DNA from: a virus
Taxonomy: Duplodnaviria; Heunggongvirae; Uroviricota; Caudoviricetes
IMG/VR virus record: IMGVR_UViG_2675903538_000006
Location: 1-16,904 of that record
DNA length: 16,904 nucleotides
Reading direction: 5' to 3' (one strand)
Shown piece after piece: positions 1-3,000 of the stretch (the first letter of the stretch is position 1; every line of letters starts with the position of its first letter). Position numbers: made by a program.

Positions 1-3000
1 ACAAAACAGAGAAGAACACCTGCGGTGCAGCCGCCCGGATGGATTGGGTTATGAGCCCGTCGTCCGGTGATGCTCTTCTCTGTTTTGTAAAAAGAGCGGT
101 ACCAGCCGGAAGCAAGTGTACAAACTGGTACCGCCAGGACTACACACAGCATAAAGTTGTGGTGCCGGGTGCCTCCCGGTGCCTGGCGAAGGTTGCACAC
201 CAGACGGGTGGGTATCCACAGAAGGTCGACTGTCAGCCTCAACCTTAACCCGCGTGCGCTGAGCCGCATTCACCACAACGCTAAGGATTCTCTTTGGTTG
301 AAAATACTTGGCTGTTATGTGCCTGTCTTTTCACCACTTCAGGCTCGGTGGTATCTTGGTGTTTTCATATAGCCAAGAAGGAAATAGTTATGACCAAAGA
401 AGAAAAAATTCTTTATTTATTCCAACTATCGGTTAAGACTCACACTGCATATCAGACTGCTGCCATGACATCAGATAAAAATTACAGTACGTCAGAAAAC
501 CCGATAGACGACATAAGCAAGCTTTACGATAAGTTCGAAGCACTACTCGATAAAAAGTTTGCTGAGGCTGGGCTTGAGTGATTGTTGAATAATCGACAAA
601 ACCCAACTTAAATTTTCGTCAGTGGGCTCGATGCCATGTGCGGTGAGCTCACTTTTCAAAACTCCAAGTAATTCAGAGCTAATTTTCAATATATCTGCTT
701 GATTTCTAACTATTCCCACTTTTTCCTCCCTTGGTCTACGCGCGGTCATGTTTTACGCCCAAACGACTTCACAGTTATTGTTTAAAATCTGGACTTTCAT
801 TTCATACACCTGCTTTAACATGAGTGCCTAGTGGCACAACATGACTCAACGAATCATCCTGGACTTCATATGCCCCAGGCGGCTACTTCGTGGGTGTCCT
901 GCCTGTTCGTTGTCTTAACACCTTTAAGTTGTAGTTTAGTTGTGGTTTTGAATGTTGTCAACAACTTTATGTGGTTTGAACGAGTAGCCAAGGAGTGCAA
1001 GGATTATCAAAAAAAGGAGGTTGTATGGAAGACGCGCTTTACGCTTTTAATTACACACAGAACCGGGACAAGTTATTTGCTAACTTGATTAGCATCATTG
1101 ATGGAATCATTGCAGATGGAGTTGTCCGTGAAGAGGAGGTTCTTTACTTAGATACATGGTTACTTGAAGCAAAGCAGATTATCAATAATGGAGTTATAAA
1201 AAGTCTATCTGCTCGGGTGTCGGATATTCTTGCGGATGGAATAATCACATCAGAAGAACGTGATGACCTTAAAAATAGCCTTCTCCAAATACAGAGGGAA
1301 ATTCTTGATATCCCTGAAATTTATTTTTACTCCAAGGATGTAGATGTCCATTTACTTAATGGACTATGTAAAGGATTAATTGCTGATCGGAACTTAACTC
1401 AAGAAGAAATAAGATATCTTAATTGGTGGCTTGAGCAAAATGGAGCTTTGAAGAACAACTACCCAGGAAAAAAACTTTATGCACTTGTAAAGGAAATTCT
1501 TAAAGATGGTGTTATTACTGAAGATGAGAGTTTAACTCTACATAAGGCATTAGTAGACTTCACAGGATGTGACTTGGAAAGTGGGGTGGTGGATGGTTTG
1601 GCGACCAGGCTGCCTATTGATGTAGGGGCTTCGATAGAGTTAGAGGGTAAAACCTATTGTCTTACAGGCACTTTTGTTGCAGGAAAGAGAGCCGTAGTTG
1701 AAAATTTGATTAAAAATGCTGGTGGGAACATCAGTAGTGGAATTACTCAAAAGTTGGATTTTTTAGTAATTGGGACGCTTTCCTCCCGTGATTGGAAATT
1801 CTCTAGTCACGGAAGGAAGATCGAAAAGGCTATATCTTATAGGGATGATAATGGTGCAAAACTTAAAATTATTTCTGAAGAAATGCTTTTCGATGCATTA
1901 CCAAGTTCGCGATGACCAGAATACCCTACCTATAACATGAATTCTGGCTCGTCTATCTTCAAAGGTGAGTATTTCATCTGGGTACTCATCTTTGTTGAAG
2001 CTTCTAAGAATCAAGCCACCGTCAGGTAAGTTGATAAGTATTTTAACCCTTAGCAATATACCATCTCGTACGGCATAAAGATCGCCATCACGAATAGGAA
2101 CGGTTTGAGAAATATCAACGGCAACAAGATCTCCATTATTGAGAACCGGTAATAAACTGTTCCCCCATATTTGTACGATCTTGGCATTAGATGCACATAC
2201 GCCAGATTTTCTCAAATCTGCTCTTCTTAACGGAAACCAGTCAATAGCTGATTCAACTATTTCAGCCAGACATCCGTTACCTGCCGATAACTCGACATCT
2301 AAAACAGGAATGTTTACGAAAATATCGGGGTCTAATGCGGTGCTTTCTGCTTCTTTTACAACAAGATCAGGTATGGATGCGTTGTCTTCAATACCAAGTT
2401 GTAACCACTTTTGTGATACACCTAAAACTTTTGCAATTTCTTTAATTTTGCGCGGTTGTAGAGTTTCGCCATTCTCTATTTTTGCTACAGATTGTTGTGA
2501 AAGTCCAATTTTTTCAGCTAGTTGAGCTTGGCTCATGCCAGCTTTCTCTCTACCTATCTTTAATCGTTCTGCCAGTGTTTTCACAACATATCCCTCTCTT
2601 TTTTGATGAGGTTACAACTTTATGTTTTAGCTTTCCAACACCTAAAAGTTGTGGTAAAAGTTGTTAATGTTGTATTCTTGCAGCTCGTAACAACTTAACT
2701 ACCAAAAAAGGAGAAAGCTATGACACCTGAGCAATTAGCCTTATCGGAGGCAATCGCTCTGGCTGGTGGTCAATCAGAATTGGCTCGGAAGCTCACAGCC
2801 AGCAGCGGTCATTTAGTAAAGCAACAACATGTCTGGAACTGGTTGAACAGAGAAAAGCGTCCCCCTGCAAAGCTCTCGATATTCATTGAAAAGACCACTG
2901 GCATATCAAAAGAAAAATTACGTCCAGATATTTTTCAAAAGATTAAAGATTCATCAGATGAAAAGTAACCACAGTTTTAAGGAGATAGCCGTGGGTAAGC

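Follow-up and report, generated by a model that had tools for sequence, protein, structure and literature searches.

A BRCT-domain protein gene paired with the phage repressor in the immunity region of an Escherichia coli Stx1a prophage and in other temperate phages

What does a temperate phage gain from a gene that is kept directly beside its repressor? Genes in this position are used by the dormant phage, and several of them have proved to be exclusion or defence systems or modulators of induction. The question is raised by the virus record IMGVR_UViG_2675903538_000006 (positions 1 to 16,904; this whole 16,904-nt stretch is hereafter called the window), which is an E. coli lambdoid prophage encoding Shiga toxin 1a (Stx1a). 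Between its cI repressor gene and the leftward operator and promoter (oL/pL), it carries the gene for a 296-aa protein that ends in a BRCT domain. We found that this gene is an accessory part of an immunity cassette with the order oL/pL - gene - cI - rightward operator (oR), that its linkage to the phage repressor is tight and ancient, and that it is a dispensable cargo; the protein most likely functions during the dormant phase of the phage. With low confidence, we further propose that temperate phages from five or more bacterial lineages carry, in their lysogeny modules, a sensor for DNA ends or lesions that is linked to the repressor. It would serve either as a single-gene exclusion system without an effector, imposing a block at the 5'-phosphorylated ends of incoming phage DNA, or in setting the threshold of RecA-dependent induction, and its enterobacterial version would be activated by CI via a pRM-like promoter facing pL. 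The coding regions concerned are the following.

1025..1915 including the stop codon, plus strand: BRCT-protein gene, 296 aa (RefSeq WP_057108842.1, 'BRCT domain-containing protein'), from the ORF list and RefSeq
1898..2584, minus strand: cI repressor, 228 aa, HTH_3 and Peptidase_S24 domains (Pfam), convergent with the BRCT-protein gene
1898..1915: 18-nt 3' overlap of the BRCT-protein gene and cI coding regions, from the coordinates

With the operators (918-975) and pL (961-933) on one side and cI (1898-2584) on the other, the gene lies exactly at the position of rex, as the first-pass annotation had stated, and the convergence with cI described there was confirmed together with the 3' overlap. 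Of 5,426 complete E. coli genomes, 47 contain the BRCT-protein gene and 48 its cI allele, and the two are always neighbours, which indicates that the gene travels with its repressor; the left flank was present in 63 genomes. The exception, RMDEC465, encodes a cI with 83% identity and holds a remnant of the gene (L003, 3662-3990), in which an internal deletion of approximately 715 bp has left the operators, the promoter, the Shine-Dalgarno (SD) sequence, the ATG, and the 3' end in place. Because of this remnant, RMDEC465 was rejected as a relative with an empty slot. Further copies (L035/L036, L049, L086, L112, and L125) contain premature stops or frameshifts and are truncated or split, and such decayed copies imply that the gene is dispensable.

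No gene was found between pL and cI in the prophages of SHP24 (ymfK-type) and O157:H7 FRIK944, which have the left arm in common with the window (yfdP-yfdR and small ORFs) but belong to other immunity types. The empty slot in these sister prophages points to oL/pL - gene - cI - oR as the unit of exchange. The earlier suggestion that the slot holds exchangeable cargo is therefore correct insofar as the slot can be empty, whereas the near-identical counts for the gene and its cI allele show that the gene is not shuffled independently of the repressor.

The same pairing was recovered well beyond E. coli. A convergent pair with a 9-32-nt 3' overlap with cI was present, at a protein identity of at least 49%, in all loci obtained from Citrobacter, Serratia, Providencia, Rosenbergiella, an Aeromonadaceae metagenome-assembled genome (MAG), and a contig assigned to Pseudomonas lundensis, and the cI of the window matches its orthologues in related loci. 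In distant phages, the gene follows the repressor gene (cI or an HTH protein gene) on the same strand after 5-57 nt. This includes Vibrio phage K139, Pseudomonas phage Marin, and a metagenomic phage (P0121 contig), whose homologues begin 26-57 nt after cI; in the P0121 contig the homologue is the gene directly after the repressor, and the same order is found with HTH/CI-type protein genes in a Desulfovibrionaceae genome and in another MAG. In the K139 record, cI-orf2-glo-int is annotated as a lysogenic operon, for which the PL start has been mapped. In one viral contig, two extra genes on the same strand lie between cI and the homologue. None of the 17 matches in the phage database came from a phage known to be virulent, and in the records examined (K139, Marin, and SNW-1), repressor, CII, or integrase genes are located near the homologue. 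Phage-borne homologues adjoining a repressor are thus distributed over Enterobacterales, Aeromonadaceae, Vibrio, Pseudomonas, and Desulfovibrionaceae. While the protein family had been catalogued and immunity-region cargo is known as a kind, this repressor-side context across five lineages is new, and the pairing with the repressor, as well as the pRM-like promoter described below, is unreported as far as we could find.

The convergent overlap itself raises the possibility that the locus acts mainly in cis, with antisense transcription into cI tuning the repressor and the protein being secondary. The 18-nt coding overlap leaves no space for an intergenic terminator and a scan for intrinsic terminators between the two overlapping genes revealed no convincing candidate, so that BRCT-gene transcripts must collide with cI transcripts; the overlap is kept in all enterobacterial-type loci. 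Nevertheless, we regard this as the least probable of the explanations weighed here. The BRCT-protein gene is under strong purifying selection at the protein level: compared with its orthologues, pN is 0.13-0.19 and pS 0.77-0.89, with saturated synonymous sites and a pN/pS of approximately 0.2. In addition, there are phages, among them K139 and those of Pseudomonas, in which cI and the protein are encoded co-directionally, and the related cI allele of RMDEC465 functions with an internally deleted copy of the gene. The enclosing ORF spans 995..1915 on the plus strand, and a start at GTG 995 was rejected, as the ATG at 1025 is the start in every orthologue and the SD sequence is retained as well.

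When, then, would such a gene be expressed? The operators of the cassette share a 15-bp near-palindrome, ACAACTTTAAGTTGT, for which up to 3 mismatches were allowed in the search; this yielded 11 strand matches compared to 0.52 expected, and none of 200 shuffles reached 11. For the promoters, we aligned the 300 nt 5' of the gene from loci in which the proteins are 56-82% identical and synonymous sites are saturated (pN 0.13-0.33), Providencia included. The resulting elements are listed here.

918..932, no strand assigned: operator-like site ACACCTTTAAGTTGT, covering the predicted pL start, from the motif search and the alignment of diverged loci
961..975, no strand assigned: operator-like site ACAACTTTATGTGGT, filling exactly the space that separates the pL and candidate-promoter -35 hexamers, from the motif search, invariant across diverged loci
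2614-2628 and 2638-2652, no strand assigned: oR operator-like sites with the ACAACTTTAAGTTGT motif, between cI and cro
933..961, minus strand: pL-like promoter, TTGACA at 961-956, 17 nt, TAAACT at 938-933, 10/12 in the promoter scan, conserved across loci
976..1004, plus strand: candidate BRCT-gene promoter, -35 TTGAAC at 976-981, 17-nt spacer, TGc-AAGGAT at 996-1004, from the comparative alignment
1014..1020, plus strand: Shine-Dalgarno sequence AAGGAGG, 4 nt upstream of ATG 1025, kept in all orthologous loci

The blocks that are invariant in the aligned upstream regions comprise both operators, the pL hexamers, and, on the strand of the gene, TTGA(AC/TT)-17 nt-(TG-n-)AAGGAT, in which the 17-nt spacing is constant and the spacer sequence is variable, also in loci with a protein identity of 56-76%, that of Providencia among them. 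The AAGGAT element (999-1004) is followed after approximately 7 nt by an A-run and the SD sequence, and the predicted transcription start is at approximately 1011. A scan for consensus sigma-70 promoters returned none for the BRCT-protein gene, since the conserved element is too weak and was seen by alignment alone. The operator at 961-975 is centred at approximately -43 relative to the predicted start, a geometry that matches the position of OR2 relative to pRM in lambda. Since a promoter-like element abuts a conserved operator, repressor control is plausible, as had been proposed earlier from the closeness of the SD sequence to the oL-like operators, and the combination of weak hexamers with an abutting operator suggests that CI activates, or at least controls, the candidate promoter. 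Such an arrangement would constitute a second CI-controlled divergent promoter pair, besides pR/pRM.

A fifth operator-like site, ACAACTTTATGCTGT (minus strand, 2 mismatches), is found at 146-160, approximately 770 bp to the left of oL and within a frameshifted hypothetical gene; it could be a chance occurrence or a distal operator.

What the protein could do in the lysogen was approached through its fold. An AlphaFold2 model built on 85 diverse relatives reached a pLDDT of 94.2 and a pTM of 0.91 and contains three parts.

1052..1303, plus strand: four-helix unit 1, residues 10-93, acidic, loops D31/E38 and D71/E78, from AlphaFold2 and conserved columns
1334..1564, plus strand: four-helix unit 2, residues 104-180, loops D121/E128 and D161/E168, from the models
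1637..1897, plus strand: BRCT domain, residues 205-291, pocket T214, G215, R222, and S254-R255, motif SRDW...GRKIEKA

The BRCT fold postulated in the first-pass annotation is confirmed by this model, which displays the order beta1-alpha1-beta2-beta3-alpha2-beta4-alpha3, as well as by Pfam BRCT (PF00533), which matches residues 206-290 with 29 bits against a cutoff of 21.3 and is found in 81 of the 85 family members. A profile search of PDB sequences with the family of the window protein returned BRCT matches alone, and the family profile matches the BRCT domains of RFC1 (2.5e-8) and LigA (3e-7). In the alignment with RFC1, T214-G215, R222, and S254-R255 fall opposite its T-G, R, and S-K (RFC1 residues numbered as in Kobayashi et al.) and are at least 90% conserved within the family. 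An S/T-G pair together with basic residues forms the general phosphate site of BRCT domains (PMC10386641), and, according to PMC9293004, which cites Kobayashi 2006 and 2010, DNA with a recessed 5'-phosphate is bound by the RFC1 BRCT alone with a Kd of ~10 nM. Judged from the alignment, the BRCT domain of the window protein belongs to the RFC1/LigA class and possesses an intact phosphate-binding pocket.

Furthermore, SRDW...GRKIEKA is an insert specific to this family of BRCT proteins, in which it is invariant, while the canonical tryptophan of BRCT alpha3, retained in most relatives, is replaced in the window protein (EEMLF). The rigid, strongly acidic N-terminal half has a net charge of -14 (family median -17; residues 1-98 alone -10), and the BRCT part is slightly basic. 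A catalytic domain is absent from the window protein. The label NAD-dependent DNA ligase, given to some records of the K139 Orf2/PHROG 3989 type, was rejected as an over-annotation, because the match to the LigA model is confined to the BRCT domain (residues 203-255 to positions 584-638 of approximately 660), and the label DNA polymerase in some phage records was rejected likewise, its match being limited to the BRCT part.

The N-terminal half consists of four helix-loop-helix repeats of the form D-G/R-x5-E, two per four-helix unit, as the first-pass annotation had recognized. It had also assigned them to TerB, for which our data are less favourable. The A-D-G-x5-E signature of TerB/EF-hand type is present in the window protein, and D124-G125...E131 is invariant in an alignment of four annotated TerB proteins from plasmids. 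Yet, Pfam TerB (PF05099; cutoff 24.4 bits) gave no match to the window protein at E<=1; matches at this threshold were obtained for 17 of the 85 relatives (best 9.5e-5), with those inspected in a second Pfam run on 10 relatives scoring a sub-threshold 16.2-20.2 bits, and DUF533 and EF-hand matches were obtained for 8 and 4 of them, respectively. The hhalign comparison of the family with the TerB alignment was weak (40% probability, pairwise E 2.9e-4), spanning 39 columns, i.e., one repeat, and Foldseek against the PDB revealed nothing at E < 0.7. The repeats are real, but membership in the TerB family is not established.

Repeat 2 (residues 60-92) weakly matches YmfL/CII-like models (NF041471, 1.3e-4; phrog_6499, 5.4e-5; phrog_101, 0.21), and the neighbouring YmfL/cII-like protein (2991-3548) holds a similar helix-loop-helix, 'EDGVVEPHEK', which may reflect a shared short motif or convergence.

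If the acidic D-G-x5-E loops bound a divalent metal or a small ligand, the protein could be a TerB-like stress or metal sensor that makes the lysogen more stress-tolerant without involving phage DNA, as a form of lysogenic conversion. The sub-threshold TerB, DUF533, and EF-hand matches and the local hhalign match are in line with this, as are chromosomal homologues adjoining SPFH/NfeD membrane-stress genes and the several stress and phage resistances provided by ter clusters (PMC11003894). We consider such a sensor unlikely, given the unsettled TerB assignment and given that it would leave unexplained the conserved BRCT pocket, the fusions to enzymes acting on DNA, and the tight linkage to the repressor.

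Do relatives of the protein offer better hints? The architecture had been thought undescribed, a view that did not hold up: PHROG 3989, to which PHROG assigns no function, matches positions 2-295 of the 296 residues (1.6e-128), and K139 Orf2 (NP_536630), with counterparts in Kappa kp3, VPUSM8, and 919TP, is 32% identical over residues 6-286 (95% of the length). The family comprises 2,866 clusters (50% identity, E<1e-3), 135 of them at E<1e-30, with members in E. coli Stx-converting prophages, the cholera phage K139, and Pseudomonas aeruginosa prophages. Many relatives of approximately 210 aa match only residues ~105-290, i.e., one four-helix unit plus BRCT, and the Marin protein has this short form.

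The module of unit 2 and BRCT is mobile and recurs in larger proteins. It forms the C-terminus of DEDDh exonucleases, the kind of protein described by the PADLOC candidate model PDC-S48 (P0214 and P0223 are PDC-S48-like proteins of this type), the corresponding region being matched likewise in K139 Orf2 and the Marin protein, and the end of a 2,042-aa protein with an SF1 helicase, an MTES_1575 nuclease, and DUF3320, which Hhe, Mokosh, and PDC-S37 models match; in one further fusion type, it precedes an HhH2-BRCT (LigA-like) tail. In Sulfurimonas phage SNW-1 (L053, 3929-4986), a short form labelled 'DNA polymerase' is followed after 3 nt by an SNase-family nuclease. Taken together, these fusions and nuclease neighbours indicate that the four-helix/BRCT module recurrently accompanies enzymes acting on DNA ends.

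Several variants were seen beside these. The SNW-1 short form heads an operon that diverges from cII, and may form a two-gene unit of sensor plus nuclease. In two MAGs of sulfur oxidisers (L067 and L068; 1418-5381), the homologue lies between a gene for a 584-629-aa AAA_15/AAA_23 ATPase and a RhuM-family gene, a neighbourhood that resembles a defence island. Shewanella variants of 396-398 aa (L098, L111, and L113; ~3147-4343) have an extra N-terminal BRCT, resulting in the order BRCT, helical units, BRCT.

A module that forms the C-terminal part of candidate defence nucleases and occurs in the phage without a nuclease could act as an anti-defence decoy, a copy of a host sensor module devoid of the effector that would compete with PDC-S48-like exonucleases or Hhe-like helicase-nucleases for a shared DNA feature and thereby protect phage or prophage DNA. 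This appears very unlikely to us: anti-defence genes are normally early lytic, whereas the gene considered here goes with cI or with the lysogenic transcript; moreover, stand-alone chromosomal homologues exist, and the E. coli hosts are not known to carry nucleases of this kind.

These chromosomal homologues emerged from a scan of one genome per species, in which 72 homologue loci were recovered. Approximately 40 marine gammaproteobacterial species (SAR86, Pseudohongiella, and related; L073-L125) encode full-length homologues with ~33% identity and the SRDW motif at a conserved chromosomal locus with TonB receptor, ABA4-like, and SPFH/NfeD neighbours and with no repressor or phage genes. Counts for the 100 immediate neighbours of the marine loci were 15 for ABA4-like proteins, 11 for TonB-dependent receptors, 10 for SPFH, and 2 for HTH repressor-like proteins. 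The marine homologues look vertically inherited, and their occurrence without phage genes implies that the protein does not need a phage partner.

Vertical inheritance in streamlined marine genomes is better explained by a role in DNA damage or induction than by defence. The protein could bind host nicks, gap junctions with a 5'-phosphate (at which RecFOR loads RecA), or a repair factor, and raise or lower the RecA* signal responsible for cleavage of the neighbouring S24 repressor, thereby setting the induction threshold or improving damage tolerance. The repressor partners checked by Pfam, those of the window and of the P0121 contig, are indeed of the S24 self-cleaving type, and the fusions to a DnaQ-type exonuclease and to HhH2-BRCT resemble repair proteins. 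There is also a precedent in Hex of phage 434, which is encoded on the cI transcript and modulates RecA-mediated cleavage (PMC3564112), and RFC1/LigA-class BRCT domains recognize nicks and 5' junctions (PMC9293004). As stx1 expression follows induction, tuning of this kind would affect the release of Shiga toxin. At the same time, similarity to RecA, LexA, or RecFOR interactors was not detectable, the gene is dispensable and decayed in some prophages, and the recurrent linkage with nucleases of candidate defence proteins fits defence equally well. We therefore hold this role to be possible but doubtful, and a close rival of the exclusion role favoured below.

The characterized genes of this slot are mostly exclusion functions (rexAB, sieB, HK022 nun, and 933W stk). 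Together with the occurrence of the module on candidate defence nucleases and the lack of free ends in an integrated prophage, this leads us to favour, tentatively, an exclusion or defence role, with the protein being an adaptor that the lysogen expresses and that binds nicks or phosphorylated DNA ends. In the phage of the window, the gene would be expressed in the lysogen from a weak promoter of its own, next to a CI operator that abuts the -35, and CI would activate this promoter or at least set its level; in other phages, it would be expressed as the gene after cI on the lysogenic transcript. Its BRCT domain would bind 5'-phosphorylated DNA ends, nicks, or recessed junctions, and the protein would act on the DNA of superinfecting or co-resident phages by capping ends or nicks, by competing with LigA, or by recruiting a host nuclease, leaving the integrated prophage untouched. 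If so, it would be a defence protein devoid of an enzymatic effector. It fits this picture that glo, downstream of orf2 in K139, is an exclusion function according to the annotation of the record.

We infer lysogenic expression, DNA-end binding, and an exclusion output, and several points weigh against the adaptor. For the phage of the window, expression in the lysogen is predicted from the promoter-operator arrangement, in which the -10 (AAGGAT) is a weak one and the operator might be repressing rather than activating. The BRCT domain is best known from eukaryotic DNA-damage signalling, and its ligand may be a phosphoprotein or a nucleotide instead of DNA. The protein lacks an effector domain, and a host partner or a stoichiometric block would be required for exclusion. 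PDC-S48, in turn, is a candidate system only, and the window protein is devoid of its exonuclease domain. Furthermore, the chromosomal marine locus is atypical for defence and suggests a cell-autonomous housekeeping or repair role. Finally, literature searches retrieved no functional study of, or experiment on, any family member, nor any work connecting BRCT domains with the exclusion of phages or defence against them; the papers found on K139 relatives do not discuss orf2, and a preprint describing the interference of an Stx prophage with co-resident prophages deals with Cro and not with the BRCT-protein gene.

The window contains Q (9603-10040), stx1A (10547-11494), and stx1B (11504-11773), which makes the immunity cassette part of an Stx1a-converting prophage, and positions 500-3600 match a prophage of E. 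coli strain ARS-C301 at 100% identity. There, int, xis, and yfdPQR are annotated upstream of the window, and the annotation further comprises cI, genes for YdaS (cro-like), YmfL (cII-like), and Rha, as well as Q, stx1A/B, and genes for lysis. At least one indel separates the window from ARS-C301 outside 500-3600. The AT-richness that had been noted for the BRCT-protein gene was confirmed (37.9% GC versus 49.8% for 3549-16904 of the window), but it is not specific to this gene: cI (39.9%), cro (42.2%), and two small left ORFs (38.5-41.5%) are similarly AT-rich, so that the AT-rich island corresponds to the entire immunity cassette (~300-3000). To the left of oL, a 68-aa ORF at 543-749 on the minus strand, unannotated in RefSeq, is the first ORF downstream of pL and matches phrog_15476 (7e-50). 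It overlaps the 3' end of an annotated 63-aa ORF at 390-581 on the plus strand (phrog_2605, 1.4e-33) by 39 nt, and the two represent a second convergent overlapping pair of the cassette.

How does this locus compare with known systems? Among defence systems, PADLOC at E<=1 identified none that is known, the partial match to PDC-S48 being the only one: residues 119-251 match positions 239-377 of 411 (2.5e-7), while the N-terminal DEDDh exonuclease of PDC-S48 (approximately the first 230 positions) is absent from the window protein, which has no RNase_T match and carries a second four-helix unit in its place. TerB (PF05099) and SngA of the Shango system are built, as is the window protein, from helix-loop-helix units with A-D-G-x5-E, two per ~80 residues. 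Shango itself was rejected, since there is no SngA match and the neighbours are cI and pL and not a partner ATPase and helicase. For the BRCT domain, those of RFC1 (p140) and LigA are the best matches in both sequence and fold, with aligned phosphate-pocket positions, and BRCT domains of this class bind 5'-phosphorylated DNA ends or nicks (PMC9293004, PMC10386641). In contrast to RFC1 and LigA, the window protein has neither a clamp-loader nor a ligase catalytic domain.

The closest counterpart is K139 Orf2, a PHROG 3989 protein with the full-length architecture of the window protein, encoded beside cI in the lysogeny module. There, orf2 follows cI on the same strand, whereas the gene of the window is convergent with cI and has its own candidate promoter, for which lambda pRM and OR2 provide a similar case of an operator abutting the -35 of a weak promoter. 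Rex-type genes are co-transcribed with cI as well; being encoded on the opposite strand, the gene of the window cannot be co-transcribed from pRM. The window protein has no sequence or domain similarity to the products of lambda rexAB, 434 hex, P22 sieB, HK022 nun, or BTP1 bstA. All of these genes, however, are likewise located beside cI, between cI and oL/pL, and, as is characteristic of immunity-region genes, the BRCT-protein gene is cargo-like, linked to a single immunity type, and probably active in the lysogen.

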